Shown: in pieces, positions 13,759 through 51,643 of the stretch
How the letters are laid out: every line of letters starts with the position of its first letter
How positions within the stretch are numbered: the first letter of the stretch is position 1
From: a virus
DNA length: 64,000 bases
Virus record (IMG/VR): IMGVR_UViG_3300043411_001575
Span: 64,001-128,000 of that record
Direction: 5' to 3' (one strand)
The notes under the pieces: generated by a model
The model's input: the letters and a program-made list of their open reading frames with translations, nothing else
Database searches by the model: none
Told to the model about the DNA's origin: nothing
Translations under genes and position numbers: made by a program

Positions 13759-13817
13759 TCGTTCTAAAATGGCTTATAACGTATGGTGCTATACTTAGTG
13801 CCGATTTATGAAAACGA

Positions 13818-14882
13818 ATGTTAATTATTAAAAACAAAAAGATGTTAAAAAACGAAATAACCGAGAATGAGGCATTGAGTATAGCACGTGTTAGTGGCAG
13901 TACTTTTGTGAATGCTGATTGCTTCGATGTTTTTCCTTTTATTGAGGATAAATCAATTGATGCTATTATTTGCGATTTACCTTATGGAACTACTGCTTGT
14001 GCTTGGGATATAATAATACCTTTTGAGAAATTATGGAAAGAATATGATAGAGTTTTAAAAGACAAAGGAAGTATTATTTTGACAGCATCACAACCATTTA
14101 CAAGTATTTTACTTATGAGTAATTTAAAATGGTTTTCTCACGAATGGATTTGGGAAAAAGAAATGGGTAGCAATTTTATGTTAGCAAACAAGCAACCACT
14201 AAAAATACACGAAAGTATATTGGTTTTTAATAGACCAATAAATGAAGTGAAAAATGATTTTGGCAAATACTCGGATATTAGGGATTATTTTCAAGAAGAA
14301 AGAAAAAAAACAAATTTATCGTATAAAGAAATAAACGAAAAATGTTTTGGTAGTGCTTCAAATGGTGGTGGTATGGCTTCAAATATTTTAACGAGTTATA
14401 AGAAAGGTTGGAGTTTTCCAAGTAAAGAAAAATATGAAGCATTGCAAAAAATAGGTATTTGTAAAACTCCTTATAATGAATTGAAAAATGAATATTTAAA
14501 AGCATTTGAGATTGATAGAACATACAACCCTATAAAAACCGATGGTAAACCTTATGTAATTAAACAAGGTGGCGTTTCTGATGTTTACGGAAATAAAGAA
14601 AACAATATCACAACTGAAAATAACGGAGATAGATTTCCAACTTCAATTTTAAAAATCAAACGTGATAAAGAAAAAATACACCCAACAGCTAAACCGCTTG
14701 AACTTATGGAATACCTTGTTAAAACATATACCAACGAGGGCGACACGGTTTTAGATAATACAATGGGTTCAGGTACAACAAACTTAGCCTGTATCAAATT
14801 AAATCGCAAATCAATTGGAATAGAAAAGGAAAAACAATATTACGATGTGGCTGTTCGGAGGGCTTCGGAGTATTGCCACTAA
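13818..14882 (+). CDS. DNA methyltransferase, N6/N4 beta class, with ~100 aa insertion
   Basis: CDLPY, HPTAKP, LDNTMGSGTT; start lies in the hairpin (13818 or 13842). Confidence 0.9.
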   Translation: MLIIKNKKMLKNEITENEALSIARVSGSTFVNADCFDVFPFIEDKSIDAIICDLPYGTTACAWDIIIPFEKLWKEYDRVLKDKGSIILTASQPFTSILLMSNLKWFSHEWIWEKEMGSNFMLANKQPLKIHESILVFNRPINEVKNDFGKYSDIRDYFQEERKKTNLSYKEINEKCFGSASNGGGMASNILTSYKKGWSFPSKEKYEALQKIGICKTPYNELKNEYLKAFEIDRTYNPIKTDGKPYVIKQGGVSDVYGNKENNITTENNGDRFPTSILKIKRDKEKIHPTAKPLELMEYLVKTYTNEGDTVLDNTMGSGTTNLACIKLNRKSIGIEKEKQYYDVAVRRASEYCH

Positions 14883-15073
14883 CGTATGGTGCTATACGAA
14901 GGAGGCGATTATTAGCACTAAAGTTGATGCGGAGTACAAATGTTTGTTTAACCACAAATGTTTCTACGGAGTACCAAACCGCCTCTTTTGTATAGCACGT
15001 GTTACCTGCTGGTGTGGTTTATTTAGCAGGATTTTGATTTGAAAACGAATAGAAAATTTAAAAAGTTTTAGAA

Positions 15074-15319
15074 ATGGGAACACAAAAAATGTATGCAGTA
15101 GAATATAAAACGGATAGTAGTTCTACTTATGAAATATTTGAAAATTATGATGATGCCTTAGCGTTTGCTAATAGTAATGAAAATGCTATGTTTTTATTTA
15201 CGGCAGACTTTAATAAGGATAGAATTTATTTAGATGGCGAAACTTGGAATTATGATGATTTTGCCGACACTTTTATTAACCAAGAAACAATTGAAACTTA
15301 TGAAATATATGGGAAGTAA
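15074..15319 (+). CDS. Cassette hypothetical acidic protein
   Basis: ORF in unit 15001-16095. Confidence 0.6.
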   Translation: MGTQKMYAVEYKTDSSSTYEIFENYDDALAFANSNENAMFLFTADFNKDRIYLDGETWNYDDFADTFINQETIETYEIYGK

Positions 15320-16067
15320 GGCAAGATTTAGTAAAGATATTTTGCCGATAATATTAAAAGATAGAACAGTCGAACAATGGTATGTTGAACCATTTGCAGG
15401 AGGAATGAACGCTATTTGCGAAGTAGGTGGTAATAGACTTGCTAACGATAAAAACTATCACTTAATTGAAATGTGGAAAGGATTAGCAAACGGAATTAAA
15501 TATCCAACGGACATACCAAAAGAATTGTATAACCTTGCAAGAGATGTGTATAATGGCAGAGAAACAAGGTTTGAACATAAAATGAATATGGCTGACGATA
15601 TGGTAGGATGGATTGGTTGGATGGGTTCTGCAAATGGAAGATTTTTTGATGGTGGATATAGTGGGAAATCAAACACAAAAATTGGAACTGTCCGTGATTA
15701 CATTAAGGAAGCAATAAGTAATATTGAAAAGCAATTACCAAAGATGGCAGGTGTTAAATTTGAAAATAAAGATTATACCAAATTGGAAATTCCTAATTGC
15801 AGTATTATTTATTGCGACATTCCATATCAAGGAACAAAACAATATTCAACATCAAAAGATTTTAACCATTCTAATTTTTGGAATTGGTGTAGAGAAAAAG
15901 CAAAGCAAGGACATACGATTTTTGTAAGTGAATACAATGCACCTGATGACTTTGAATGTGTTTGGCAAAAAGAGGCAAAATCTTCTTTATCGGCAAACGG
16001 CAAAATCGGTGGCAATAAGTTGAGCGTGGAAAAACTTTTTAAATTTTCTCCCACAAATGTTCAATAG
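15300..16067 (+). CDS. DNA adenine methylase, D12/Dam-like alpha class
   Basis: MKYMGSK, YVEPFAGG, YCDIPY, FVSEY. Confidence 0.9.
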   Translation: MKYMGSKARFSKDILPIILKDRTVEQWYVEPFAGGMNAICEVGGNRLANDKNYHLIEMWKGLANGIKYPTDIPKELYNLARDVYNGRETRFEHKMNMADDMVGWIGWMGSANGRFFDGGYSGKSNTKIGTVRDYIKEAISNIEKQLPKMAGVKFENKDYTKLEIPNCSIIYCDIPYQGTKQYSTSKDFNHSNFWNWCREKAKQGHTIFVSEYNAPDDFECVWQKEAKSSLSANGKIGGNKLSVEKLFKFSPTNVQ

Positions 16068-16236
16068 TAGCACTATCGTAGCACTTGCAGGTAACAGACA
16101 AGGCTATATTCTCGTGCCGTTTTTCACGGCATGGAATTATAGCCGATGTTATGCAAGTGGGTTGGGTTGTGGGTGGCTCGTTTCAAAACTCTTTTTCTTA
16201 TTTTTTTAGGGAGGGATTTTTTATTTTCTTTTTTAC

Positions 16237-16266
16237 TTGCCAATTGACAATTTATGTTTATCTTTG
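16237..16266 (+). promoter_or_regulatory. Cassette-internal promoter with palindromic operator; copies at 19774, 24834, 29532, 30492, 39123, 46858
   Basis: TTGCCAATTGACAA followed by the -7 element TATCTTTG; perfect palindrome TTGCTAATTAGCAA at 39123-39136. Confidence 0.65.
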
Positions 16267-16308
16267 TAGCAGATAATTTAATACTAACAATTTAAAAACA
16301 AAAACAAA

Positions 16309-16524
16309 ATGAGCAAAATCACAGACTTTTGGGTGGTTACTAAACCAACGAAAAATTCAACATTGGCAGATATTCTGTTTAGTGCAGATATGAAACGAAT
16401 GGAATTGCAGTTCAAAGGAGGATTGACTGGAAAGGAAATTGTTGGAACATTTACCACAAAAGACCAAGCTACAAAGGTTGCTAAAATGGCACTTTTAAAA
16501 GCTGGTGCAAATGTAAAATTTTAA
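16309..16524 (+). CDS. Small cassette protein
   Basis: First ORF after the cassette promoter. Confidence 0.65.
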   Translation: MSKITDFWVVTKPTKNSTLADILFSADMKRMELQFKGGLTGKEIVGTFTTKDQATKVAKMALLKAGANVKF

Positions 16525-16542
16525 CATCTAAAACGAAACAAA

Positions 16543-16734
16543 ATGGGAATTTCAAAAACACTTGACCAAAGCAGAACCATTGTTTACGAAAACAAACTCG
16601 TTACTTGGGTTGATTGGGCATCTAAGGATGTTCACAAAGGAACAATTAAAATAAAAATACTCGGCAGGAAAACTTACATAACTGTTGATTACAACGACTT
16701 GAAAAATGTAAGTGTTACTAAAATTAAAAAATAA
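16543..16734 (+). CDS. Small cassette protein
   Basis: Operon-packed ORF. Confidence 0.6.
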   Translation: MGISKTLDQSRTIVYENKLVTWVDWASKDVHKGTIKIKILGRKTYITVDYNDLKNVSVTKIKK

Positions 16735-16739
16735 AAACT

Positions 16740-16907
16740 ATGGCAACTAAACCTAAAGCACCGTTTCAGGTAGGCGGTTACAAAGTAAAATGGTCTACAT
16801 CAAATAAAACTTGGCAGATTTGGAAAGGCAGTAAATTGATTGACGATTTTACAACTAAAGAAAGTGCAAGAACAAAAGCCGAAAGACTAACAAGAGGCTC
16901 TTACTAA
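16740..16907 (+). CDS. Small cassette protein (55 aa, not in ORF track)
   Basis: MATKPKAPFQVGGYKVKW...RGSY*. Confidence 0.6.
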   Translation: MATKPKAPFQVGGYKVKWSTSNKTWQIWKGSKLIDDFTTKESARTKAERLTRGSY

Positions 16908-16917
16908 AAACAAAACA

Positions 16918-17070
16918 ATGAAACTATCTGTAACAGAATATGCAAAACAGCTTGGTGTAACTCGTCAGGCTGTTTTGTTACAGATTAAAGAAAAAAGGCT
17001 ACCAAAAAATGTTATAGTTGAAAAAATTGGTAATACTTATCTCTTATCTGTGCGTGGGCAAAAAAAATAA
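16918..17070 (+). CDS. Small HTH regulator, family copy 1 of 7
   Basis: MKLSVTEYAKQLGVTRQAVLLQIKEKRLP. Confidence 0.8.
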   Translation: MKLSVTEYAKQLGVTRQAVLLQIKEKRLPKNVIVEKIGNTYLLSVRGQKK

Positions 17071-17161
17071 GAAAAAGAGTTTTGAAATGTTGCATAACGT
17101 TATCTCGCTTGGCGAGGTTTGGGGTTGAAACCCTATAATTTCTAATTTAAAACAAAATATA

Positions 17162-17998
17162 ATGAACACCGATATAAACGAAAATCCCAAATCTTGCCAA
17201 ACGAGTGTTATGGTTAGTGCGGATTTGATTAACAAAATTCATAATGAAAACTGCCTTGAAACAATGGCGAAAATGCCTGATAATTTTATTGATTTAACTG
17301 TTACCTCACCGCCTTATGATGGATTAAGAACGTACAACGGTTATAGTTTTGATTTTGAAAGTGTCGCAAAAGAATTATACCGAGTTACTAAAGAGGGTGG
17401 TGTTGTAGTGTGGGTTGTGGGCGATGCAACAGTAAAAGGCAGTGAAAGTTTAACATCATTTAAACAAGCTATTTATTTCAAAGATATTGGGTTTTCTGTA
17501 GAAACTATGATTTATGAAAAGGCGCAATCTTGCTTTGGTAGTAACACCTATTATTTGCAGGCGTTTGAATATATGTTTGTTTTAACTAAAGGCACTAAAC
17601 CAAAAGCAATTAATCATTTACGTGACCGCAGAAATGAGCGTAGTGGCGTTGAGAGTATGGGAAAAGGAGGCTTAAATAAAAACGGCACTAAAACAGACAG
17701 GCATAAAAAAGAAATGCTCGAATATGGTAAGCGAAAAAATATATGGAAATACGGAGTGGGTGGAGGCAAGACGGGACATCCTGCGGTATTTCCTGAACAG
17801 CTCGCAAACGACCATATAATTTCGTGGAGCAATGAAAACGATATTGTTTACGATTGCTTTAGCGGAAGCGGAACAACTGCTAAAATGAGTATAATTAATA
17901 GCAGGCGATGGATAGCGTCTGAAATGAGTGCTGAATATTGCGATATTATAAAAGAACGTATTAAAGTAGATAAAGGTCTTTTTGAAAACGTATCGTAG
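17162..17998 (+). CDS. DNA methyltransferase, beta class (SPPY, N4-cytosine-like)
   Basis: TSPPY, HPAVFP, YDCFSGSGTT. Confidence 0.9.
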   Translation: MNTDINENPKSCQTSVMVSADLINKIHNENCLETMAKMPDNFIDLTVTSPPYDGLRTYNGYSFDFESVAKELYRVTKEGGVVVWVVGDATVKGSESLTSFKQAIYFKDIGFSVETMIYEKAQSCFGSNTYYLQAFEYMFVLTKGTKPKAINHLRDRRNERSGVESMGKGGLNKNGTKTDRHKKEMLEYGKRKNIWKYGVGGGKTGHPAVFPEQLANDHIISWSNENDIVYDCFSGSGTTAKMSIINSRRWIASEMSAEYCDIIKERIKVDKGLFENVS

Positions 17999-19150: not shown

Positions 19151-19222
19151 CGTATCGTGGCTTTGTTGTCGTTGTGGCTATTTAAGACCAAACTTAACAA
19201 ATAATAACTAAAAATTAAATTT

Positions 19223-19621: not shown

Positions 19622-19850
19622 CCACTAACGGCATCCGTATAAGGGAAGTGCGAGGAACGAGCATTTACTTTATACGGTGTTAGCAAAGTGCGTTGGGCTG
19701 TGTGTTGGCTCGTTCCAAAACCATTTATTTTCTTTTTTTTGGGGAGGTTTTGAAAACTTTTTTACTAAAATACTTGCTAAATGACAATTTATATTTATCT
19801 TTGAACCATATTAACAATTAAAAAATAAAAACAATTAAAAAATAAAAACA

Positions 19851-20036
19851 ATGACAAAATTCGGAACAACAACTTGCCAATTTTACAACGGAACAGATTC
19901 AGTAACCGTAAATTCATCACTATTCAGAACCATTAGAGGTTGGGCTTCTACTGGTATTCCAAAAGATGCTATTAAAGGGGGAAGAAAGGTTTACGTTGCT
20001 AAAACAACTCTTGAACGCATTAAAAAAATTGCTTAA
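19851..20036 (+). CDS. Small cassette protein
   Basis: Lies between promoter and HTH gene. Confidence 0.6.
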   Translation: MTKFGTTTCQFYNGTDSVTVNSSLFRTIRGWASTGIPKDAIKGGRKVYVAKTTLERIKKIA

Positions 20037-20221
20037 TGAGAATTTCTGTAACTGATTATGCAAAACAGCTTGGTGTAACTCGTCAAGCTGTTTTGTTACA
20101 GATTAAAGAAAAAAGGTTGCCTAATAATGTTAAGTCTGAAAAAATTGGCAACACTTACTCTTTAACTGTGGGTGGGCAAAAAAAGAATAAAAATGCTTCC
20201 AATAAACTACAATCGAAGTAG
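20036..20221 (+). CDS. Small HTH regulator, copy 2
   Basis: SVTDYAKQLGVTRQAVLLQIKEKRLP. Confidence 0.8.
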   Translation: MRISVTDYAKQLGVTRQAVLLQIKEKRLPNNVKSEKIGNTYSLTVGGQKKNKNASNKLQSK

Positions 20222-20313
20222 TATCGTAGCAATGGGGCATAACGGTTTCGGGCTTGGCGAAGTGGCTGAACTCGAAGCTAAATAGGATTACTAAACTTTA
20301 AAATTAAAAACGA

Positions 20314-21820: not shown

Positions 21821-21822
21821 TT

Positions 21823-22728: not shown

Positions 22729-22851
22729 AAGGTTTTTACACAGAACTATGATTGAAACATGAATGTAGTATTGTGTATAACGGTTTTGGGCTTGGCGAAG
22801 TGGCTGAACCCGATGCTAAATAGAATTACTAAACTTTAAAATTAAAAACGA

Positions 22852-23619
22852 ATGATTGATAGAATTACCGAACAGCCATTTTGCCAAACCCGTGTTAGTG
22901 GCAGTACTTTTGTGAACGCTGATTGCTTTGATGTTTTTCCTTTTATTGAGGATAAATCAATAGATGCTATTATTTGCGACCTGCCTTATGGAACGACTAT
23001 TTTGAATTGGGATAAAATTTTACCTATTACAGAATTATGGAAACATTATAATCGTATTTTAAAAGATAATGGAGTGGTAGTTTTGTTTGGTGCTGAACCA
23101 TTTTCGACTATGTTAAGAAGTAGTAATATTTTGAATTATAAATATGATTGGATTTGGCAAAAAACAAGACCTTCATTATTCCAACACGCAAACAAAAGAC
23201 CAATGAAAGACCACGAAAATATTATGGTATTTTATAAAAAGCAGCCGACTTACAACCAAGAACTAAAAGAACTTGAAAAGCCAAATAAAAGATGGCGAAA
23301 AAATAAAATGGGTGCTTTTTTAGAAAATGGTTGCAATGATATTGAAAGCAAACAAACCAAGACAGGATTTAATAGGCAAATTTTAACCTATGCAATGCAC
23401 AATGTAGGAATGGAACATAAAACACAAAAGCCGATTGAACTTTTGGAATACCTTGTAAAAACATACACCAACGAAAACGATATGGTTTTAGACAATACAA
23501 TGGGTTCTGGAACAACAAATTTGGCTTGTATCAAATTAAATCGCAAGTCAATAGGAATAGAAAAGGAAAAACAATATTACGATGTCGCTGTTCGGCGTGC
23601 TTTGGAGTATTGCCACTAA
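22852..23619 (+). CDS. DNA methyltransferase, beta class
   Basis: CDLPY, HKTQKP, LDNTMGSGTT. Confidence 0.9.
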   Translation: MIDRITEQPFCQTRVSGSTFVNADCFDVFPFIEDKSIDAIICDLPYGTTILNWDKILPITELWKHYNRILKDNGVVVLFGAEPFSTMLRSSNILNYKYDWIWQKTRPSLFQHANKRPMKDHENIMVFYKKQPTYNQELKELEKPNKRWRKNKMGAFLENGCNDIESKQTKTGFNRQILTYAMHNVGMEHKTQKPIELLEYLVKTYTNENDMVLDNTMGSGTTNLACIKLNRKSIGIEKEKQYYDVAVRRALEYCH

Positions 23620-23723
23620 CGGTGTGGGCTATGAGAAGTAAAACCCCTTTTTGTGCGGTGGATTTTGTAAATTTGTAATTATTAACTAAAACCTTTCGGA
23701 GTATAGGCAACCGAGTAAATGTT

Positions 23724-24677: not shown

Positions 24678-24903
24678 TATTGGTGCTAACGTTTACGGCT
24701 ATATTCTCGTGCCGTTTTTCACGGCATGGAATTATAGCCGATGTTATGCAAGTGCGTTGGCTTGTGGGTGGCACGTTTCAAAACTCTTTTTCTTATTTTT
24801 TTTAGAGAGGGATTTTTTTATTTTCTTTATTACTTGCTAATTGACAATTTATGTTTATCTTTGTAGCAGATAATTAATACTAACAATTTAAAATCAAAAC
24901 AAA

Positions 24904-25188
24904 ATGAGCAAAGCAGGATTAACAAAATTTTTAGCAAAGTTCCCAGATGACACTAAAAGCTGGGCTAAAGCAACAGATGAAGTTCGTGATATTGCACGAA
25001 CAGCAAAAGAATATTACAATGAAATAGAAGGCAAAGATATTCAACCTTGCGATTTCCGTTCAATGAAAACGCCTTCCGAATGGAACACAAAAGGTAAAAG
25101 CTACATTTTTAAAGTGTATGATAAAATGAGTGCAAAAACAAAAACAGAGTTTAACGGCTATTTGAAAAGCCACTTTAATATTAAATAA
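24904..25188 (+). CDS. Small cassette protein
   Basis: Lies between promoter and HTH gene. Confidence 0.65.
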   Translation: MSKAGLTKFLAKFPDDTKSWAKATDEVRDIARTAKEYYNEIEGKDIQPCDFRSMKTPSEWNTKGKSYIFKVYDKMSAKTKTEFNGYLKSHFNIK

Positions 25189-25189
25189 A

Positions 25190-25348
25190 ATGGAGCAACT
25201 ATCTGTAACCGATTATGCAAAATTGCTTGGCGTAACTCGTCAGGCGATTTTGTTACAGATTAAAGAAAAAAGGTTGCCGAAAAATGTTACAGCAAAAAAA
25301 ATCGGGAACACTTATCTACTATCTGTGCGTAGGCAAAAAAGAAAATAA
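25190..25348 (+). CDS. Small HTH regulator, copy 3
   Basis: MEQLSVTDYAKLLGVTRQAILLQIKEKRLP. Confidence 0.8.
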   Translation: MEQLSVTDYAKLLGVTRQAILLQIKEKRLPKNVTAKKIGNTYLLSVRRQKRK

Positions 25349-25474
25349 ATGGTTTTGGAATGTTTGCTAACGGTGTGGGCTATGAGAAGTAAAACCCCTT
25401 TTTGTGCGGTGGATTTTGTAAATTTGTAATTATTAACTAAAACCTTTCGGAGTATAGGAAACCGAAATAAAGTT

Positions 25475-25765: not shown

Positions 25766-25996
25766 AATCTTTTCACAGTTTTGAAAAAACTGAAAGAGTG
25801 CGTGGGCTTTTTCTTTTTTAATAATTTAATTGCCACTAACGTTGAAGGGCTTGGCGAAGGTGGGCTTGTAGGATGCTCAATTTTAGCAGAATGTTTCTGC
25901 CCACTTTTGCCAAACCCGTGTTATATGAAGTGCCGACTTATTTACGTTGAAGCCAAATTGGAACACTAAACAGAAAAACAAAAAGAAAAAAAAGGG

Positions 25997-26809
25997 ATGG
26001 AATTAAATAAAATACATTTAGGAGATTGTTTAGAAGTAATGAAAACTTTGCCAAATGAAAGCATTGATTGTATTGTTACTTCACCGCCATATTGGTTACA
26101 AAGAGATTACGGATGGGATGGACAATGGGGTATGGAAGAAACGTTTTATGAGTATTTGGATAAATTGTTTTTAATGATGGATGAAGCAAAACGAATATTG
26201 AAAAACGATGGAACTATTTTTGTAAATATTGGCGATGGCTATGCAAGAACAGGTGGAAAATCATTAGGTAAAAAACAACCAAACGCTTTATTGTATGCAA
26301 CACAAGAAGGGATAAGGGGCGGAAATAACAAGGGAGTTGCAGGAATACAAGATAAAACATTACTACAAATACCATATCGTTTTTCTATTGGCTGTATTGA
26401 TAGAGGATGGATTTTGCGAAACAATATAATTTGGTTTAAAAGAAACGCAATGCCCGAAAGTGTAAAGGACAGATTTACAAAATCACACGAAGTAATATTT
26501 ATGTTTTCTAAAAACAAAGAATACTTTTTTGACGAAAAATTTGTAACACAAGATGTTTGGGATATTCCTTTAACTCCTAACGGCACAAAACATATAGCAT
26601 CTTACAATACTGATTTAATTGGCAGACCTATTGTTTGCGGTTGCAGAAAGGGTGGAATAGTATTAGATATGTTTTGCGGAGCAGGAACAACAGGAATAAG
26701 AGCATTAGAACTTGGGAGAAACTTTATAGGGATAGATGGTAAAAAGGAATACGTTGATATGGCACAACAAAGAATTAATGATATTGTATCACAACCACAA
26801 TTATTTTAA
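25997..26809 (+). CDS. DNA methyltransferase, beta class (SPPY)
   Basis: TSPPY, LDMFCGAGTT. Confidence 0.9.
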   Translation: MELNKIHLGDCLEVMKTLPNESIDCIVTSPPYWLQRDYGWDGQWGMEETFYEYLDKLFLMMDEAKRILKNDGTIFVNIGDGYARTGGKSLGKKQPNALLYATQEGIRGGNNKGVAGIQDKTLLQIPYRFSIGCIDRGWILRNNIIWFKRNAMPESVKDRFTKSHEVIFMFSKNKEYFFDEKFVTQDVWDIPLTPNGTKHIASYNTDLIGRPIVCGCRKGGIVLDMFCGAGTTGIRALELGRNFIGIDGKKEYVDMAQQRINDIVSQPQLF

Positions 26810-27059
26810 AAGTGCGGTGGCTTTTTTCTTTTTGTTTTTCCTTCACGGAACTTCAATTGGAAACGGTCAGCAAGGCATTTCATATAACGACCGTGTGTTT
26901 ATGTCAGGTTTTGCTTTTCGCAAAACTTGCATTAAACACAATGTTAGCAAAGTGCGTTGGCTTGTGGGTGGCTCGTTGTATTTAATAAAAAAGAAAAAAA
27001 GGAAGGCGTGTGTTGGCTATTTTAATTTGTAAATTTGTATAAACATAAATCATATAAAA

Positions 27060-31858: not shown

Positions 31859-32084
31859 TCTAAGCGGTGCGTTGGCAGGGGTTTTATTTCTTATAGCCCC
31901 TGTTATAGCATCGTTTTAATGTGCTATAACGGTTTGCGTATATGAGAAGTGGCACTTGCACGAACTTAAAATTTAGCACAAATGTTTCTGTGCCATTTCT
32001 TATATACGCTGTTATAGCCAGTAGGGATTTTTAGCACAAACGTTTAATCGAAGCACTAAAAGAAAAATTAAAAAAAGAGAAGGG

Positions 32085-35297: not shown

Positions 35298-35495
35298 ATT
35301 GTACATAACGTTTTGCGTATATGAGAAGTGGCACTTGCACAAACTTGAAATTTAGCACAAATGTTTCTGTGCCATTTCTTATATACGCTGTTATGTGTAG
35401 TTGCGGTTTAATAGCAGGGAGTTCAATTTGAAATGAGATACTTTTTCTTTTCTTTTTTGAGCGATGGCAAAAATAAATTTGAAAAATTTAAAAAT

Positions 35496-37949: not shown

Positions 37950-38097
37950 TAGAGGTGGAGTTCGGGATGGGGCTGGTAGAAAAAAAGCAGACTACGAAAC
38001 AAAAACTATTTCCTTTCGTGTTCGTCTTGAATTTGTAGAACCGATTAAAAAGATGGTCAAGGATTATGTTTCGGAGCGTCTTAAAGGTGACGCATAA
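37930..38097 (+). CDS. RGG-motif/RHH-like regulator (55 aa, not in ORF track)
   Basis: RGGVRDGAGRKK..TKTISFRVR. Confidence 0.65.
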   Translation: MKKKKTNRGGVRDGAGRKKADYETKTISFRVRLEFVEPIKKMVKDYVSERLKGDA

Positions 38098-38168
38098 CGT
38101 TCGAGGGCTTGGCGAAGTGGCTGAACCTGAAGCTAAATAGAATTACTAAACTTAAAAATTAAGAACGA

Positions 38169-38939
38169 ATGATTGATAGAATTACTGAACAGCCATTTTG
38201 CCAAACCCGTGTTAGTGGCAGTACTTTTGTGAATGCTGATTGCTTTGATGTTTTTCCTTTTATCGAGGATAAATCAATTGATGCTATTATTGCCGATTTG
38301 CCTTATGGAACTACTCAAAATAAATGGGATAGTATTTTGCCACTTAATAAACTTTGGAAAGAATACAAGCGGATTTTAAAAGATAGTGGTTGTGTTGTTC
38401 TTTTTGCTCAAACTCCATTTGACAAAGTACTTGGTTGTTCAAATTTAGATTGGTTAAAATACGAATGGATTTGGGATAAAAAACTTGGAAGTGGTTCTTT
38501 GAATGTAAAAAAAATGCCTTTAAAAAGACACGAAAATATATTAGTATTTAGCAAAGGGAAAACCACATATAATCCACAAATGACAAAAGGTAAATTTAGA
38601 AATAAAAGTACAAGTAAGCCATCATCTAATAAAGGTAATTACGGAGAAATAACACACCAAAAAGATAATTTTAATGATGATTATTATCCAACCACTATTT
38701 TAGAATTTACTAATGCAAATGTAAGAGCAAGGGTTCATCCAACTGAAAAACAATTATCTCTTATGGAATACCTTGTAAAAACATACACAAACGAAGGCGA
38801 TACAGTTTTAGATAATACAATGGGTTCAGGAACAACAAACTTGGCTTGTATCAAATTAAATCGCAAATCAATTGGAATTGAAAAGGAAAAACAATATTAC
38901 GATGTCGCTGTTCGGAGGGCTTCGGAGTATTGCCACTAA
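38169..38939 (+). CDS. DNA methyltransferase, beta class
   Basis: ADLPY, HPTEK, LDNTMGSGTT. Confidence 0.9.
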   Translation: MIDRITEQPFCQTRVSGSTFVNADCFDVFPFIEDKSIDAIIADLPYGTTQNKWDSILPLNKLWKEYKRILKDSGCVVLFAQTPFDKVLGCSNLDWLKYEWIWDKKLGSGSLNVKKMPLKRHENILVFSKGKTTYNPQMTKGKFRNKSTSKPSSNKGNYGEITHQKDNFNDDYYPTTILEFTNANVRARVHPTEKQLSLMEYLVKTYTNEGDTVLDNTMGSGTTNLACIKLNRKSIGIEKEKQYYDVAVRRASEYCH

Positions 38940-39188
38940 CGTTTTGCGTATATGAGAAGTGGCACTTGCACAAACTTGAAATTTAGCACAAATGTTTCTG
39001 TGCCATTTCTTATATACGCTGTTATGCCCTCGTTGCGGTAATTTTAGAACTAACTTCAATCGAAGCACTAAGGCATTTTTATTCTTTTTGTGGGAGGGTT
39101 GAAAACTTTTTTAAAATAACACTTGCTAATTAGCAAAATATAGTTACTTTTGTAACGCAATAATGCAGAAAACTAAAATTTAAAAACA

Positions 39189-39421: not shown

Positions 39422-39607
39422 ATGCGACTATCTGTAACAGAATACGCAAAACAGCTTGGTGTAACTCGTCAAGCTGTTTTGTTACAGATTAAAGAAAAAA
39501 GGTTGCCTAATAATGTTAAGTCTGAAAAAATTGGCAACACTTACTCTTTAACTGTGGGTGGGCAAAAAAAGAATAAAAATGCTTCCAATAAACTACAATC
39601 GAAGTAG
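39422..39607 (+). CDS. Small HTH regulator, copy 6
   Basis: MRLSVTEYAKQLGVTRQAVLLQIKEKRLP. Confidence 0.8.
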   Translation: MRLSVTEYAKQLGVTRQAVLLQIKEKRLPNNVKSEKIGNTYSLTVGGQKKNKNASNKLQSK

Positions 39608-39738
39608 TATCGTAGCAATGGGGCATAACGGTTGAGTGTATGAGTAGTGTGGCTTTGTACATACTCTCGACTTACAGATAAATTTATTTAGCCACATTAC
39701 TTATACACTTTGTTATAGGTATGTAAAATTTACGGATT

Positions 39739-43716: not shown

Positions 43717-43910
43717 TGCTTGTACATAACGTTTTCGGGCTTGGCGAAGGTGGGCTTGTAGGATGCTCAATTTTAGCACAATGTGTCTGCCCACTTTTGC
43801 CAAACCCGTGTTATATGAAGTGCCGACTTATTAAGCAGAATTTTAAATTGAAACTATAAACAGAAAAACAAAAAAGAAAAAAAGCGTAGGGAATTTTAAA
43901 AACAAACAAT

Positions 43911-44177
43911 ATGGAAAAGAATTTTATTGAAAAAGCAGAAAAAGAAATTGGTAGAAAATTTGGTTTTTTCATCAGATGTGATGATAAAAACAAACCAACA
44001 GAAGTATTAACCGATATGTACTTTGAACTATGGGAAACAGAAAAGATGAACGAGATTTTATCTTTATGCGAAACACATAATCTTAAATACGATTTTGGTT
44101 TAGAAAGTTTTGATACCAAAATAGATGCTATTGAACAAGAAATATGTATTGTTTCAACTAATTGCGAAAATTCATAA
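43911..44177 (+). CDS. Cassette hypothetical protein
   Basis: Operon with the downstream MTase. Confidence 0.6.
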   Translation: MEKNFIEKAEKEIGRKFGFFIRCDDKNKPTEVLTDMYFELWETEKMNEILSLCETHNLKYDFGLESFDTKIDAIEQEICIVSTNCENS

Positions 44178-44178
44178 A

Positions 44179-44922
44179 ATGGAAGCAAATACGATTTACA
44201 AAGGCGATTGCTTTGAACTTATAAAGCAAATAACAAAAGCAGATAACGTCAAACTTATTATTACAGACCCACCATATTTACATAATAAAGGAGGTGGGAA
44301 AACATCGGGAACAGAGGGTAAAAGTTCAATAGCTAATAGCCCTATGTATAAATTCGATTCATTTATGATGGAAGATATGAGTTCTTTTTTAGAGGAAGAT
44401 GTTTATAATCTATTAGATGAATATAAAAGAATAATGACAAAATTAAACTGCTTTATATTTACTAATGACACTTTGATACCGTATTATACAATGTGGGCAG
44501 TTAAAAACAATAAAAAGTTTACAATTTTAACTTGGGAAAAACCATTGTCGATTTTAAACAGAAATAGATTTAGTCAGAATTTAGAATATGTTGTGAGGAT
44601 TTACGACAATGGAACTGCACTTAATTTAATAGATTTAGAAGCATATCCCGAAAAGAAAAACTACTACTCAAAAAACAGAAGGTTAAATTCGCCTACAAAT
44701 AAGATACACCCAACCCAAAAACCATTAGAATATCTACTTGGATTGATTGAGTTAAATACAAATGAAGGCGATTTAGTATTAGATACGTTTTTTGGTAGTG
44801 GACAAACAGGTAAGGCTTGTCAGATTTTAAATAGAAATTATATCGGTTTTGAAAGAGAAGAAAAGTATGTTGAATTATCAAATAAATATTTACAACAAGG
44901 ATTTGAAAAAACACTATTTTAA
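44179..44922 (+). CDS. DNA methyltransferase, beta class (DPPY)
   Basis: TDPPY, HPTQKP, LDTFFGSG. Confidence 0.9.
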   Translation: MEANTIYKGDCFELIKQITKADNVKLIITDPPYLHNKGGGKTSGTEGKSSIANSPMYKFDSFMMEDMSSFLEEDVYNLLDEYKRIMTKLNCFIFTNDTLIPYYTMWAVKNNKKFTILTWEKPLSILNRNRFSQNLEYVVRIYDNGTALNLIDLEAYPEKKNYYSKNRRLNSPTNKIHPTQKPLEYLLGLIELNTNEGDLVLDTFFGSGQTGKACQILNRNYIGFEREEKYVELSNKYLQQGFEKTLF

Positions 44923-45071
44923 AAGTGTGGTGGCTTTTTTCTTTTTGTTTTTCATTAACGGAACTTCAATTGGAAACGGTCAGCAAGGCATTTCATATAA
45001 CGTTCGAGGGCTTGGCGAAGTGGCTGAACCTGAAGCTAAATAGAATTACTAAACTTAAAAATTAAGAACGA

Positions 45072-45881
45072 ATGATTGATATAATTACTGAACAGCCATT
45101 TTGCCAAACCCGTGTTAGTGGCAGTACTTTTGTGAATGCTGATTGCTTTGATGTTTTTCCTTTTATCGAGGATAAATCAATTGATGCTATTATTTGCGAT
45201 TTGCCCTATGGAACAACTCAATGTAAATGGGATAGCATTATTAATTTAGATTTGATGTGGACGCAATACAACAGAATAATAAAAGATAACGGCATTTTTA
45301 TATTATTTGCAGATGAGCCTTTTACAAGCATATTAATAAATAGTAACATTAAAAATTTTAAGCAAAGAATAACTTGGGATAAACAAATAGCAGGAGGTCA
45401 TTTAAACGCTAAAAAAATGCTATTGAAAAGAACTGAGGATATATGCTTATTTTCAAATGTTAAAAATGGAAAATATACATACAATCCTATTTTAAAAGAT
45501 AAGGATTTTAAAAACATAAGAGATAGAAACGGAGAAAACAGAAAAGAGTTTAAAGGCGGTTATGTAGGGAAACACAATAGTACGTTGAGTAAAGAGCATA
45601 ACAATAAAAAAAGTTACCCAGATAATTTAATTTCCTTTTCAGCAAGAAAAGGCGATTGTAACCCTATAAATAGATTACACCCAACACAAAAACCACTTGA
45701 ATTGATGGAATATCTTATAAAAACCTATACTAATGAGGGCGATTTGGTTTTAGATAACACAATGGGTTCTGGAACAACAATTTTAGCTGCTATAAAAAAT
45801 AATAGAATTGGTATAGGAATTGAAAAGGAAAAACAATATTATGATGTCGCTGTTCGTAGGGCTTCGGAGTATTGCCACTAA
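45072..45881 (+). CDS. DNA methyltransferase, beta class
   Basis: CDLPY, HPTQKP, LDNTMGSGTT. Confidence 0.9.
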   Translation: MIDIITEQPFCQTRVSGSTFVNADCFDVFPFIEDKSIDAIICDLPYGTTQCKWDSIINLDLMWTQYNRIIKDNGIFILFADEPFTSILINSNIKNFKQRITWDKQIAGGHLNAKKMLLKRTEDICLFSNVKNGKYTYNPILKDKDFKNIRDRNGENRKEFKGGYVGKHNSTLSKEHNNKKSYPDNLISFSARKGDCNPINRLHPTQKPLELMEYLIKTYTNEGDLVLDNTMGSGTTILAAIKNNRIGIGIEKEKQYYDVAVRRASEYCH

Positions 45882-45952
45882 CGTTATCGGGCTTGGCGAA
45901 GTGGCTGAACCCGAAGCTAAATAGAATTACTAAACTTAAAAATTAAAAACGA

Positions 45953-46711
45953 ATGTCAAATAGAATTACAGAACAGCCATTTTGCCAAACCAGTGTTAGT
46001 GGCAGTACTTTTGTAAATGCTGATTGCTTTGATGTTTTTCCTTTTATTGAGGACAAATCAATTGATGCTATTATTTGCGATTTGCCTTATGGAACTACTG
46101 CTTGTAAGTGGGATACAATTATACCATTTGAGCCGCTATGGGAGCAGTACAAGCGAGTGATTAAACCTAATGGTGCGATAGTGCTGTTTAGCAAAGAGCC
46201 ATTTACGTGCATATTGAGAACAAGTGAAATTAAAATTTTTAAGCAACCTCTTATTTGGGATAAGGTTAATTCAGATAACCCTATGCAGGCAAAAAGAAGA
46301 CATCTAAACACTACGGAGGATATTTCTATCTTTTACAAATCTCAATGTACTTATAACCCACAAGGTCTTATAAAGTCAAATATAAAAAAGGGAGGGAAGC
46401 AAGGGATAATGATTGATAGTAGTGGTAAGGAAAAAGAACAATATATTCAAGAGAATACCAATTATCCGAAAAATATATTAGTGTACCCGATAGAAAGAAA
46501 GGCGGTTCATCCAACTCAAAAACCCGAAGCACTCCTGCAATACTTAGTCAAAACCTACACTAACGAAGGCGATATAGTCTTAGATAACTGTATGGGTTCA
46601 GGTACAACAAATCTTGCTTGTTTAAAATTAAATCGCAAATCAATTGGAATAGAAAAGGAAAAACAATATTACGATGTCGCTGTTCGTAGGGCTTCTGAGT
46701 ATTGCCACTAA
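45953..46711 (+). CDS. DNA methyltransferase, beta class
   Basis: CDLPY, HPTQKP, LDNCMGSGTT. Confidence 0.9.
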   Translation: MSNRITEQPFCQTSVSGSTFVNADCFDVFPFIEDKSIDAIICDLPYGTTACKWDTIIPFEPLWEQYKRVIKPNGAIVLFSKEPFTCILRTSEIKIFKQPLIWDKVNSDNPMQAKRRHLNTTEDISIFYKSQCTYNPQGLIKSNIKKGGKQGIMIDSSGKEKEQYIQENTNYPKNILVYPIERKAVHPTQKPEALLQYLVKTYTNEGDIVLDNCMGSGTTNLACLKLNRKSIGIEKEKQYYDVAVRRASEYCH

Positions 46712-46918
46712 CGGTATCCGTATAAGGGAAGTGCGAGGAACGAGCATTTACTTTATACGGTGTTAGCAAAGTGCGTTGGGATTGTGTGTCGGCTCGTTCC
46801 AAAACCATTTATTTTCTTTTTTTTGGGGAGGTTTTGAAAACTTTTTTACTAAAATACTTGCTAAATGACAATTTATATTTATCTTTGAACCATATTAATA
46901 ATCTAAAAACAAAACAAA

Positions 46919-47230
46919 ATGATTTACAAAAAAACACACTATGATAAAAAGGCTTTAAACAGCCACGTTTCAAAAATAAAAGATGCAGGAGGAAATGCAA
47001 TAGTAGATGGATTATCGGTTAGATATTTCTATCCATCCAATACCATTGGTGAAATTAGATTAAAGCATAAGAGTTGGAAGAAAACAGAAAGACAAGAAGT
47101 TTTGTTTATTGTTTTAGTTTCTGAAAAAGATAAAACGCCATACTATTCAGCAATGTATTTCCCGAAATGGGTTGAAATAGGAGGTGTTTATGGAAACAAA
47201 AATGACATAACAATAATCGAAAAGTTTTAA
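46919..47230 (+). CDS. Small cassette protein
   Basis: Lies between promoter and HTH gene. Confidence 0.65.
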   Translation: MIYKKTHYDKKALNSHVSKIKDAGGNAIVDGLSVRYFYPSNTIGEIRLKHKSWKKTERQEVLFIVLVSEKDKTPYYSAMYFPKWVEIGGVYGNKNDITIIEKF

Positions 47231-47232
47231 CT

Positions 47233-47388
47233 ATGAAACTGTCTGTAACAGAATATGCAAAACAGCTTGGCGTAACTCGTCAAGCCGTTTTGTTACAAAT
47301 TAAAGAAAAAAGGTTGCCTAAAAATGTGAAGGTTGAAAAAATCGGAAATACTTATTCTTTAACTGTGGGTGGGCAAAAAAGAAAATAA
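47233..47388 (+). CDS. Small HTH regulator, copy 7
   Basis: MKLSVTEYAKQLGVTRQAVLLQIKEKRLP. Confidence 0.8.
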   Translation: MKLSVTEYAKQLGVTRQAVLLQIKEKRLPKNVKVEKIGNTYSLTVGGQKRK

Positions 47389-47533
47389 ATGGTTTTGGAA
47401 TGTTTGCTAACGTATGGTGCTATGAGCAGGTTTGCCTTGCAGAAATGTTCAAATTTAGCACTAATGTTATTGGCAAACTTGCTTATAGCACGTGTTAGCG
47501 GTAGTTTATTTTTCAAAAATTAAAATTAAAAAT

Positions 47534-47992: not shown

Positions 47993-48120
47993 CGTTTTGC
48001 AGCTAACAGAAGGCGGCTTTTTAGCAAACTTAGTACTTGCCGCTTTTTGTTAGCTGCTGTTAGTGGACTGTTAAATTATTAAAAAAGAAAAAAGGAGGGG
48101 TGCGAGGGCATCTAAACATA

Positions 48121-48957
48121 ATGGACAAGAAGAAACTTTTAATTGCTTTTAGTGGTGGAGAAACATCTGCATTTATGGCTCAATGGTTATGGAAACATAA
48201 ACAAGGTGAATACGAAATGTTATTTGCTTTTGCTAATACTGGGGTTGAGAATGAAGAAACTTTAAACTTTGTGCATAAATGCGAAGTTGAATTTGGTATA
48301 AATGTTAATTGGTTGGAAGCAGTAATAGACCAAGAGAAAGGGAAAGGCACAAGGCATAAGATTGTTGATTACAAAACAGCAAGTAGAAACGGACAACCAT
48401 TTGAGGAACTGATAAAGAAATACGGTTTACCAAACCAACAGCGATTTCACTGCACAAGGGAGTTAAAAAATAATACATTGATTTCATTTGCAAAAAGTAT
48501 TTGGGGAAAGGAAAAGTATTATTTAGCAATAGGAATTAGAGTAGATGAATTTGATAGGATGAATGATAAATTTAAAGAGTTGAGAATTGTTTATCCGTTA
48601 ATTTCAGAAATTCCAATGACAAAGCCAAAGATTAATTTTTGGTGGAAACAACAACCGTTTAGATTAGAATTAAAAGGTTATCAAGGGAATTGTGTTACTT
48701 GCTACAAAAAAAGTGATAAAAAATTGTTTCAGATAGCTAAAGAAAATCCAAGTGCATTTGATTTCTTTGATAGAATGGAAGAACAATATGGAGAAGGTAA
48801 GTATCAATTTTTTAGGCAGAACCGAACAGCTAAACAAATTATGGAACAAGCTAAAGAATGGAATGGCAATGTAACCGATGACGCACAAAATGTTACAATA
48901 CAAACAGATTTATTTAGCGAAAGTTGTGAAGCATTTACAAGCGATTGCGGTGTTTAA
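48121..48957 (+). CDS. PAPS reductase-like (PP-loop) protein
   Basis: FSGGETS, FANTG.E, CTRELK, GIRVDE, GNCVTC. Confidence 0.8.
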   Translation: MDKKKLLIAFSGGETSAFMAQWLWKHKQGEYEMLFAFANTGVENEETLNFVHKCEVEFGINVNWLEAVIDQEKGKGTRHKIVDYKTASRNGQPFEELIKKYGLPNQQRFHCTRELKNNTLISFAKSIWGKEKYYLAIGIRVDEFDRMNDKFKELRIVYPLISEIPMTKPKINFWWKQQPFRLELKGYQGNCVTCYKKSDKKLFQIAKENPSAFDFFDRMEEQYGEGKYQFFRQNRTAKQIMEQAKEWNGNVTDDAQNVTIQTDLFSESCEAFTSDCGV

Positions 48958-49088
48958 CCTTTTCACAGTTTTGAAAAAACTGAAAGAGTGCGTGGGCTTT
49001 TTCTTTTTTAATAATTTAATTGCCACTAACGGTTCGCAGGTATATTTAGTTGCGGACTTAGTAACACAAAACTTTAAATTTAGAAGAA

Positions 49089-49445
49089 ATGAAGAAAGAA
49101 GAACAAAACTCGAATGAACCACAAAAACCGCAATTGAATATACCTGCTGTTAGTTGCAGTGTTGTTCATTGCAAGAAAGCACCTTATGATGTTTATATTG
49201 GAAGACCAAGCAAATGGGGTAATCCATTCACACACATAAAAGACGGTAAAACACTTGCAAAACATATTGTAGGTAGTAGAGATGAAGCAGTCGAAGCATA
49301 TCTTGAATGGATTACCAACGGAGAAGGTAAACATTTGATGAGTGATTTACACGAATTGAAAGATAAGGTGCTTGGTTGTTGGTGTCATCCACAATCTTGT
49401 CACGGAGATGTACTTTCGGAGTTGGTTGCTAAACATTGCAACTAA
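49089..49445 (+). CDS. DUF4326-like protein
   Basis: VYIGRPSKWGNPF, LGCWCHPQSCHGDVL. Confidence 0.8.
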   Translation: MKKEEQNSNEPQKPQLNIPAVSCSVVHCKKAPYDVYIGRPSKWGNPFTHIKDGKTLAKHIVGSRDEAVEAYLEWITNGEGKHLMSDLHELKDKVLGCWCHPQSCHGDVLSELVAKHCN

Positions 49446-49488
49446 CGTTTTGCAGGTATATTTAGTGCCGAATTTAAAAACGAAAAAT

Positions 49489-49791
49489 ATGAATTTTATA
49501 CAAAAGTTATTTAAAAGCAGAAAGGTTAATGAACCGATGAACTCGGCATTGAATATACCTGTTGTTATACCTCGTTTATCTTCTGATTGGATAAAATTTG
49601 AGGATGAAAAACCACCACACGAAGTAGTATTAGCTGCTTGCGATACTTATGATTGTGGATGGACTATGGATACTGTTTGGTGGTATGAAGATAAGCAATG
49701 TTGGATGGTTACTGGTGCAGTTAAAAGTACAGAAGCACATTTACCATACACACATTGGCGTAAATTACCACCATTTCCAAATGAGGTATAA
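49489..49791 (+). CDS. DUF551-like phage protein
   Basis: WIKFEDEKPP ... THWRKLP; ATG in the hairpin loop. Confidence 0.65.
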   Translation: MNFIQKLFKSRKVNEPMNSALNIPVVIPRLSSDWIKFEDEKPPHEVVLAACDTYDCGWTMDTVWWYEDKQCWMVTGAVKSTEAHLPYTHWRKLPPFPNEV

Positions 49792-49978
49792 CGTATTGGT
49801 GCTATACGAAGGAGGCGATTATTAGCACTAAATTTGATGCGGAGTACAAATGTTTGTTTAACCACAAATGTTTCTGCGGAGTACCAAACCGCCTCTTTTG
49901 TATAGCACGTGTTATACGCTGGCACGGTTGATTAAACGAGAAACTTAAATTGAAACACAAAACAAAATTTTTATTAAA

Positions 49979-50764
49979 ATGAGCGAGGGCAAAAAAGAAA
50001 TATTATTAGGAGATTGTTTGGAACTTATGAAGGATATACCAAACGGAAGTATTGATATGATACTTTGTGATTTACCATACGGAACAACTGCTTGTAAATG
50101 GGATAGTGTAATACCTTTTGAACCACTTTGGAAAGAATATGAAAGGATTATAAAGACCAATGGTGCTATTTTATTGTTTGGAACACAACCATTCACAACA
50201 GAACTAATATTGAGCAATAGAAAATTGTTTAAGTATGATATGGTTTGGTGCAAAGACAAACCTGCTGACTTCGGAAATGGCAATATAAAACCATTAAGAT
50301 ACCACGAAACAATTTGTGTATTTTATACCAAAACGCCAACATACAATAAGCAATTTGAAAGCAGAAAAGGAACTGGCTATTCAAGGGCTAAATATCCTGT
50401 AAATTACATAAACAATTCAGAGCATAAATTTGGAATGAAAGATGGTTCTTTTGATTATGCAAATAAAGACAGAATGATTGGAACTGTAATAGATATTACA
50501 ACTGGTGCAAGAGGTAGCATAAAACACCCAACAGTAAAGCCCGTTCCTTTATTTGAACATTTAATCAAAACATATACCAACGAAGGTGAATTGGTTTTAG
50601 ATAATACAGCAGGAAGCGGAACAACTGCAATTGCTTGTTTGAATACTAAAAGGCAATTTATAGTAATGGAAAAAGAACAAAAGTATTACGATATGATTTT
50701 AAAAAGGGTGGGAGATTTTAATAAAAATTTTGAACCGCAAACTCTCTTTGGAAACGAAATGTAG
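49979..50764 (+). CDS. DNA methyltransferase, beta class
   Basis: CDLPY, HPTVKP, LDNTAGSGTT. Confidence 0.9.
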   Translation: MSEGKKEILLGDCLELMKDIPNGSIDMILCDLPYGTTACKWDSVIPFEPLWKEYERIIKTNGAILLFGTQPFTTELILSNRKLFKYDMVWCKDKPADFGNGNIKPLRYHETICVFYTKTPTYNKQFESRKGTGYSRAKYPVNYINNSEHKFGMKDGSFDYANKDRMIGTVIDITTGARGSIKHPTVKPVPLFEHLIKTYTNEGELVLDNTAGSGTTAIACLNTKRQFIVMEKEQKYYDMILKRVGDFNKNFEPQTLFGNEM

Positions 50765-50848
50765 TGCTTGCGTATAACGGTATCGGGCTTGGCGAAGTGG
50801 CTGAACCGAATGTTTGATAGAAGCACAAAACTTAATAATTAAAAACGA

Positions 50849-51643
50849 ATGATTGATAGAATTACTGAACAGCCATTTTGCCAAACCCGTGTTATGTGCA
50901 GGGCGGTTGATAACCTTGAACTCCTTTTGTCGCAACCTGATGAAAGTGTAGATTTGATTTACTGTGATATTCTTTATGGAACGGGTAGGAATTTCGGTGA
51001 TTACCAAGACTTAAAACCAATTAGAAGCGAAATAGAAAGCCACTACCTACCAAGACTTATTGAAATGAAACGAGTTTTAAAAAGTACAGGTAGTATTTAT
51101 TTGCAAATGGATACACGAATAAACCATTGGATGCGCATTTTGATGGATGATGTTTTTGGGTATGAAAATTTCCGCAATGAAATAGTATTTGGATATAATG
51201 GGGGTGGTGTTTCAAAGAATTGTTATCCTAAAAAACACGACATAATCTTGTTTTATTCTGTTAGTGATAAATACTATTTTAATAACGAAAAGAAACCATA
51301 CTCCGCTTTAAGTTCACAAAACTTATTGTGGAAACATAGGAATAAAAAAAGACTTGATGAACTTAATGATGGCACACCTGTAACCGATGTATGGACTGAT
51401 TTGAAGTTTAAAATAAATTACCAAGAGGAAGAATATACAGGATATGCTACCCAAAAAACAAAAGAATTATTGAGCCGTATTGTTTTAGCTTCCACAAATG
51501 AAGGCGATACAGTTGCAGATTATTATTTAGGTAGTGGCACAACGGCAGTAGTTTGTAAGGAACTGAACCGAAATTTTATAGGTTGCGATATTAATCCAAA
51601 AGCTATTGAAATAACAAATGCTCGTTTAGATGCACTTTCGTAG
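50849..51643 (+). CDS. DNA methyltransferase, beta class, atypical DILY motif IV
   Basis: CDILY, YATQK, DYYLGSGTT; paralog of 20314. Confidence 0.85.
   Translation: MIDRITEQPFCQTRVMCRAVDNLELLLSQPDESVDLIYCDILYGTGRNFGDYQDLKPIRSEIESHYLPRLIEMKRVLKSTGSIYLQMDTRINHWMRILMDDVFGYENFRNEIVFGYNGGGVSKNCYPKKHDIILFYSVSDKYYFNNEKKPYSALSSQNLLWKHRNKKRLDELNDGTPVTDVWTDLKFKINYQEEEYTGYATQKTKELLSRIVLASTNEGDTVADYYLGSGTTAVVCKELNRNFIGCDINPKAIEITNARLDALS

Follow-up and report, generated by a model that had tools for sequence, protein, structure and literature searches.

The locus considered here raises a question of orientation: in an array of gene cassettes separated by hairpins, does each hairpin belong to the gene in front of it or to the gene behind it, and which strand is worked upon by the recombinase encoded beside the array? 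The array is found in the virus record IMGVR_UViG_3300043411_001575 (169,658 bp), of which bases 64001-128000 were analysed as one stretch of 64,000 nucleotides (the window; coordinates are those of the window unless given as genome coordinates). The window has a G+C content of ~31%, its + strand carries nearly all of the genes, and the carrier of the array is a phage of the Bacteroidota. Fifty-one units follow one another on the + strand between positions 13781 and 51656, and the gene for an Xer-like tyrosine recombinase (51703..52572, + strand) lies directly downstream on the same strand. A first-pass annotation had proposed that the polarity of these cassettes is reversed, that the genes point towards the recombinase and that the + strand is the folding strand. 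As set out below, this is very likely to be an integron-like gene-capture array whose cassettes are built the other way round; the reversed polarity itself, with a crossover at the TAAC in front of each hairpin, is well supported by comparison of sequences and leaves little room for doubt.

Organisation of the cassette array

Read along the coding strand, each unit consists of a hairpin, one or more open reading frames (ORFs) and a tail ending in TAAC, and a cassette is counted here from the G that follows a TAAC up to and including the C of the next TAAC. That all of the cargo lies on the + strand, upstream of and co-directional with the recombinase, was already part of the first-pass annotation, and it holds without exception for the sizeable ORFs within 13781-51656 as well as for the recombinase gene itself (51676/51703-52572). 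A complete site comprises, on the + strand, the tail TTGCnnnTAAC, a G with a one-sided bulge of 4-5 nt, a stem of ~20 bp, a loop of 5-90 nt, the 3' arm, the sequence (T/G)GTTA and the head nnnGC(A/T)G. There are 44 complete TAAC...GTTA hairpins with stems of ~20 bp, and seven other sites lack the 3' arm or have an atypical end. A representative hairpin (38095..38214, + strand) runs from TAAC through the G, the one-sided bulge of 4-5 nt, a 19-bp stem, a 66-nt loop and the 3' arm to GTTA; its stem carries two G-T wobbles 3 bp apart, as 5'-GAAG-3' opposite four T, and its loop contains the ATG of a methylase gene. When + strand sites were required to pass -12.5 kcal/mol, 45 were found in the array versus eight across the remaining 130 kb of the genome. 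No Rfam family matched within the array. The cargo consists largely of DNA methyltransferases (at least 16 of the 21 cassette ORFs scanned, Pfam N6_N4_Mtase or D12 class), with a Dam match falling under the Pfam cut-off.

Position of the crossover

The units of the array are in part paralogous, which allows the linkage between hairpins and genes to be followed. The sequence GTTAGTGGCAGTAC occurs five times on the + strand and its near-complement five times at the ends of the same genes, where 0.16 would be expected by chance. One of these five paralogous methylase cassettes, 22782..23620 (+ strand), has the head GTTAGTGGCAGTAC and the tail GTATTGCCACTAAC; the other four (13781-14883, 38099-38940, 45002-45882 and 45883-46712, all + strand) have the same head and a near-complement as their tail. 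As had been claimed, four of the five units (22782, 38099, 45002 and 45883) have one upstream hairpin in common, at 0.89-0.99 identity, 13781 having another, and their five downstream hairpins (14880, 23617, 38937, 45879 and 46709) are all different. Three further pairs on the + strand behave in the same way, being alike in the hairpin (0.92-0.98) and in what follows it, with an upstream identity of 0.41-0.59: cassette 16096..17098 with 24691-25371 (hairpin 0.92, downstream 0.93, upstream 0.41), cassette 19630..20243 with 46713-47411 (0.98, 0.97 and 0.59) and cassette 25841..26888 with 43731-45001 (0.94, 0.77 and 0.45). With hairpin similarity read at ~0.85 identity, since at 0.70 the background swamps the comparison, none of the 14 site pairs with the same upstream gene have a hairpin in common, versus 11 of the 17 pairs that agree in their downstream sequence. 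Of the six that do not, four include the distal site 13777 and two include 30117. In self-comparison of the array, the ends of homology blocks were found to cluster at TAAC; of the left ends, 44 lie at -3 to -5, and of the right ends, 34 lie at +1 to +3.

Footprints of single units outside the array point to the same position. A solitary unit of 429 bp (genome 23957-24385), made up of a hairpin, a 99-codon ORF and a closing TTTAAC, splits a gene between the codons for ...IKQE and RLFYDN..., and the homologues P0005 and P0007 are uninterrupted at this point (...IEQERLFYDN...), the empty site thus being seen at the protein level only. The motif AACG is repeated at both junctions, and the head of the unit, GTTAAATTTAGG, complements its tail. 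Several phages from metagenomes carry intact homologues (P0002-P0007; 230-238 aa) of the split gene (genome 23866-24994; L003 1866-2994). No Pfam family covers this gene, a search with it as protein query returned no match, the DNA of the empty site had no exact match in viral contigs, and the window has no close nucleotide relative in the phage collection.

Phage isolates provide a further comparison. Flavobacterium phage filifjonk9-1 has ten hairpins of the same build on its coding strand, and one of its hairpin-plus-methylase units is nearly identical to the 38099 and 45002 units of the window. The phages mumin6-1 and mumin6-4 differ over 9 kb by eight mismatches and by one 506-bp block, which consists of a hairpin and an ORF and has TAACGTT at both bounds, and comparison of mumin with tooticki and filifjonk gave four further breakpoints, all of them at TAAC. 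The extra cassette of filifjonk lies directly against the backbone, at TAAC|TACAATATT, where the array ends on its 3' side; because the base after the C is T in the backbone and G in the hairpin, the crossover lies within TAAC or at its 3' edge. Cassette arrays without a tyrosine recombinase are carried by Flavobacterium Muminvirus isolates (L010, L011, L008 and L016) and by Polaribacter phage P12002L (L009), at whose loci hairpins are present and no PF00589 recombinase was found. Since Muminvirus isolates from the same station differ by whole cassettes and lack a recombinase of their own, the enzyme would come from the host or from another phage.

In metagenomes, cassette 49 of the window (49443..49793, + strand) was recovered as one whole piece between foreign flanks in a wastewater contig (run X11), and contigs from two studies begin at 51653. 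Logan contigs break at hairpins, and most of the listed joints have fewer than 30 letters per side; for this reason whole pieces only were used, and joints, depth and RNA runs were excluded. Taken with the bare TAAC at the right end of the array (see below), paralogue linkage, the solitary unit, the phage isolates and the metagenome cassette make up five mutually independent kinds of evidence which support an exchange point at the TAAC 5' of each hairpin. The first-pass annotation had named crossovers on the GTTA side as one outcome that would speak against it; among all of the indels and replacements compared, none maps there.

The recombinase and its putative docking site

The recombinase ORF is listed from a GTG at 51676, and the ATG at 51703 aligns with the start in its relatives. 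The protein matches PF00589 (E = 2e-43), and its best matches are XerA, XerD and XerC, the top NCBIfam model being XerA_Arch with 206 bits, under the cut-off of 220. Models of the integron integrase IntI align to it in two pieces (155 bits versus a cut-off of 265), with residues 180-200 spanning model positions 192-239, such that ~27 residues are absent. Among solved structures, the XerA-like 4A8E is the closest, and IntI4 (2A3V) matches in two stretches. The recombinase is without the IntI-specific insertion, and for this reason the system is termed integron-like and not an integron.

Between the last cassette and the recombinase lies an attI-like junction (51646..51702, + strand), in which the last tail, TTGCACATAAC, is followed by a conserved stretch without a hairpin that reaches the recombinase ATG. 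The bare TAAC half-site lies 47 nt before this ATG, and no fold was found on either strand after TTGCACATAAC. From the TAAC rightwards the junction is conserved in two relatives, L001 and L006, whose recombinases are 79% identical, and the sequence to the left of the TAAC is unrelated in both; in L006, too, the last unit begins with its hairpin, and its tail complements its head. Relatives of the recombinase gave three usable loci (L001, L006 and L012), each of which ends near the gene, and no second full array with a recombinase was found among them. The bare TAAC next to the recombinase is a putative docking site. The segment TTGCACATAAC GTGTAT TTAATGG (51646-51680) presumably resembles the layout of dif, with an arm, a 6-nt spacer and a second arm, and the tail TTGCnnATAAC we likewise take to resemble a dif half-site. 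As the docking site is placed just upstream of the co-directional recombinase, at the end of the array, the genes point towards it. On the minus strand the canonical geometry of recombinase, attI-like site and array is restored, with every ORF antisense to the integron convention; this part of the first-pass annotation is supported by the hairpin-less TAAC beside the recombinase and by the TAAC crossover.

The strand that probably folds

The tail of a cassette complements its own head at 7.6 of 10 positions, versus 3.25 of 10 for the tail of the neighbour, which is the one that lies beside the hairpin in the array (none of 10000 permutations reached the observed value). Positions 1-5 of tail and head vary among cassettes and covary in 40-42 of the 44 sites, and the same is seen in filifjonk. 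The pairing of own tail and head adjoins the hairpin only after excision of the cassette as a circle. At position 7 of this arm a G stands opposite a T in 42 of 44 sites, and two more G-T pairs occur at fixed places of the stem, typically as 5'-GAAG-3' opposite four T. Calculated with DNA energy parameters, the + strand fold is the more stable at 43 of 44 sites in the form present in the array (by a mean of 3.4 kcal/mol) and at all 44 in the circle form (mean 4.7 kcal/mol); energy figures for L008 were excluded, some of its hairpin coordinates being off. The statement that stem mismatches are mostly G-T on the + strand is borne out by 103 G-T versus 37 A-C oppositions under a score that treats both alike, where arithmetic from the base composition predicts near-equal numbers.

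Tyrosine recombinases cut the strand on which the binding arm precedes the spacer, which in a hairpin is the 5' arm. A crossover at TAAC thus implies that the + strand reacts, provided that the substrate is folded DNA. Units are exchanged at the TAAC preceding each hairpin. In the mechanism that we propose, the excised circle would join the tail of a cassette to its own hairpin, extending the TAAC/GTTA base of the hairpin into a duplex arm of 9-14 bp. The coding (+) strand would then fold and react as single-stranded DNA, with the tyrosine recombinase cutting the 5' arm beside the spacer, at the mapped crossover. The choice of strand would be encoded by the three conserved G-T wobbles and the one-sided 4-nt bulge, as the minus strand turns the wobbles into A-C mismatches. 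Folding of the + strand as single-stranded DNA is, on energies and wobble bias, the reading that fits best and is probably correct, held with distinctly less confidence than the position of the crossover.

Several observations weigh against the scheme as a whole. Every crossover was deduced by comparing sequences. Cassette exchange also takes place among the Muminvirus phages, in which no tyrosine recombinase is encoded, so that the window recombinase is a candidate for the enzyme and no more. The 44 sites are related by duplication and are thus not independent of one another. The linkage of hairpin and gene is broken in three gene families (sites 13777, 30117 and 31927/35306/38937), which indicates that hairpins are sometimes exchanged or homogenised on their own; in the last of these, a family at 31927..32014, 35306-35393 and 38937-39024 (+ strand), the hairpins are 0.96-1.00 identical, the genes on both sides are unrelated and neither flank is held in common, in agreement with the earlier remark that this family varies on both sides. 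Blocks of homology also end at GTTA (28 right ends). This pile stems from hairpin families that are common to unrelated genes, and it does not locate the crossover, because attC sites of chromosomal integrons show similarity of the same kind. Lastly, every hairpin is transcribed in the sense direction and G-U pairs in mRNA would give the same wobble bias, for which reason a single-stranded + strand substrate stays an inference, and the absence of the IntI domain that reads extrahelical attC bases makes a double-stranded, dif-like reaction possible.

This last alternative survives best, and we regard it as unlikely. It would keep the TAAC polarity as real, with a core made up of TTGCnnnTAAC, a spacer and the beginning of the stem, and the role of the inverted repeat, with its G-T bias, would be in the mRNA (in its stability or processing, or in the control of translation starts in the loop). 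It is in keeping with a recombinase closest to XerA, XerC and XerD and without the IntI insertion, with a docking site that has no hairpin, and with the presence of all of the hairpins in sense transcripts, 16 ORFs starting in a loop. A core on the 5' side would, however, place no demand on the GTTA and the head beyond the 3' arm, which covary with the tail of the same cassette. Pairing of tail and head in RNA would have to span the whole gene, whereas a circle brings both ends together, and stems persist in families whose sequences are unrelated.

The left end of the array bears on a second alternative, an ordinary integron layout in which each hairpin goes with the gene that precedes it, the crossover lies at G|TT of the coding strand, the minus strand folds and docking takes place at the far left. 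That stop codons lie in the TAAC box, a feature of many classical cassettes as well, that some blocks of homology end at GTTA, and that site 13777 shares a gene with four others only from GTTA onwards would all suit this layout. The far left is, however, occupied by a degenerate unit (13254..13780, + strand) whose hairpin is reduced to a 3' arm ending GATGTTATAAGCC at ~13358, followed by an ORF (13384-13758) with a tail that, read by eye, complements its own head; no fold was found on either strand of 13254..13780, and this end is a decayed half-hairpin in place of a docking site. At the right end there is no hairpin behind the last cassette, and the solitary unit has its hairpin before the ORF. 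Contradicted by both ends of the array, by the solitary unit, by the absence of shared hairpins among the 14 pairs with the same upstream gene and by the bounding of all indels and replacements at TAAC, the ordinary layout is rejected as highly improbable. The third alternative, that the repeats are no recombination sites at all, with homologous or illegitimate recombination between similar intergenic terminators and a recombinase that serves only phage integration or dimer resolution, would draw on hairpin families that are 85-100% alike, which would allow homologous exchange, and on the Muminvirus phages that lack a recombinase, and it is dismissed as having hardly any likelihood in view of indel ends that share just 4-7 nt, always TAAC(GTT), of one unit placed at AAC inside a coding sequence, of the covariation of head and tail, and of the half-site conserved beside the recombinase start in relatives.

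Expression of the cassette genes

It had been suggested that the cassette genes are expressed from upstream or internal promoters rather than from a Pc, and the arrangement of the ORFs agrees with this. The main ORF starts within the hairpin loop in 16 cassettes, which leaves no room for a promoter of its own; GTT is in frame in 11 of these 16, and the 3' arm then encodes a leader such as MIDRITEQPFCQTRV. Among the other 35 cassettes, 14 have a TAnnTTTG box of the Bacteroidota type 10-130 nt before the ORF, compared with 3.1 in shuffled sequences (maximum 8), and a strict search for TTTG-N17-23-TAnnTTTG gave 13 matches on the + strand versus four on the - strand, numbers that are too few when taken alone. 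Genes thus rely on their own promoters or on read-through from upstream, and those without a promoter would be read through from upstream, which leaves a promoter at the recombinase end unable to drive the array. In 13 cassettes the ORF stops on the TAA of TAAC.

At 22852-22897, 38169-38214, 45072-45117 and 50849-50894, among others, the hairpin loop includes an A-rich tract together with the ATG of the gene that follows. With the ATG in the loop and a conserved leader (MIDRITEQPFCQTRV...) encoded by the 3' arm, the recombination site doubles as a portable translation start.

Atypical units and cargo

Five sites have a 5' arm only (23617, 25368, 27973, 28963 and 31546; e.g. TAACGGTGTGGGCTATGAGAAG) and are followed by a promoter-like TAnnTTTG and a small ORF; these are probably decayed or fused cassettes that are no longer mobile. 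In two units, 19630-20243 and 24691-25371, the head is not complementary to the tail and the 3' part matches other cassettes, and both look like fusions of two cassettes from which the intervening site has been lost. For 19630-20243, of which 20036-20247 is 97% identical to 39422-39633, the mismatch of head and tail therefore makes such a fusion probable. The 285-aa cassette ORF at 48100-48957, in which a PAPS-reductase-like domain was recognised (E = 6e-6), does not resemble the methylases; it may stand for another kind of DNA or nucleotide modification.

Relation to known systems

The array has much in common with integrons: it is a long array of mostly single-gene units with imperfect hairpins with AAC...GTT bases between them, its crossover lies in an AAC/GTT triplet, its hairpins are strand-asymmetric, its stop codons often lie in the AAC box, its docking site is at the 5' end of a tyrosine recombinase gene, and units also land at AAC elsewhere. 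Of the features that define integrons, hairpins bounded by AAC and GTT are thus present, as is an attI-like site (by its putative function) beside the 5' end of the recombinase gene; an integrase of the IntI clade, and a 3' attC with bottom-strand folding and Pc-driven ORFs, are not. In integrons the cassette carries attC on its 3' side, and because it is the bottom strand that folds, the genes come to lie behind Pc and point away from attI (PMC8876359). Here, the hairpin stands 5' of the ORF, the sense strand folds better and the ORFs point towards the docking site, and a Pc promoter therefore cannot work. In addition, the recombinase is without the IntI insertion, the asymmetry arises from G-T wobbles and a one-sided bulge where integrons use extrahelical bases, the hairpin base has a paired arm of 9-14 bp in place of 7, and the system is carried by phages with DNA methylases.

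Attention has been drawn to one of these hairpins before. Among the attC-like sites listed for Polaribacter phage P12002L, it was read as an ordinary attC of divergent direction (Qi et al. 2023; PMC9892861). P12002L_attC1, as given in the primer table of that paper, is one of the hairpins described here (L009 ~4895-4955), and it precedes a methylase whose tail complements its head. IntI1 did not recombine P12002L attC1 (PMC9892861). The sites were interpreted as CALIN (at least two predicted attC sites without an integron integrase in the vicinity), and neither a recombinase belonging to the phage nor a reversed polarity was proposed (PMC9892861). The Muminvirus and P12002L loci, with hairpins and no PF00589 recombinase, do fit the definition of a phage CALIN; for the window the label is unfit, because a recombinase adjoins the array.

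In Treponema it is the integrase gene that has been turned round, and the array downstream of it is otherwise ordinary. In the window, by contrast, the array lies upstream of the recombinase, each hairpin stands before its ORF and the cassettes are flipped relative to the docking site, so that the two systems are alike only in their co-direction. Such co-direction of integrase and cassette genes gave rise to the term ‘reverse integron’ in Treponema denticola (Coleman 2004, as described in PMC4909258). CTX phage provides a case in which Xer enzymes integrate phage DNA folded from a single strand: its whole genome is inserted at the chromosomal dif site by the host XerCD (PMC3442271). Likewise, an Xer-type enzyme would here act on a one-strand hairpin, and a single strand exchange with a double-stranded target would suffice; unlike CTX phage, the window has an array of gene cassettes and a phage-borne recombinase. 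For Muminvirus, methylase content has been linked to plating efficiency, without mention of cassettes or hairpins (Nilsson et al.; PMC7077304). No description of a mirror-image phage cassette system was found in the literature. What these phages carry is a new variation on the integron principle.

Implications

The current view of integrons links a special integrase domain with bottom-strand folding and with a promoter placed where cassettes insert, and the system described here appears to capture and shuffle genes without any of the three, which makes it testable which integron features are actually required. Standard integron finders seek IntI and attC sites 3' of genes, and would for this reason miss such arrays or assign them the wrong orientation; at least one published phage attC site (PMC9892861) belongs to this other system. 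The methylase cargo probably protects the phage from host restriction, and flavobacterial phages, including the isolates of PMC7077304, could trade anti-restriction genes in this way. We put at about even chances the wider proposal that Bacteroidota phages possess their own means of gene capture, widespread among them and parallel to integrons, with a plain Xer-like recombinase, hairpins of the coding strand, a choice of strand by G-T wobbles, and a site that supplies a start codon and leader. If this is true, it would represent either an independent invention of the integron principle or a likeness to the Xer-like ancestor of integrons.

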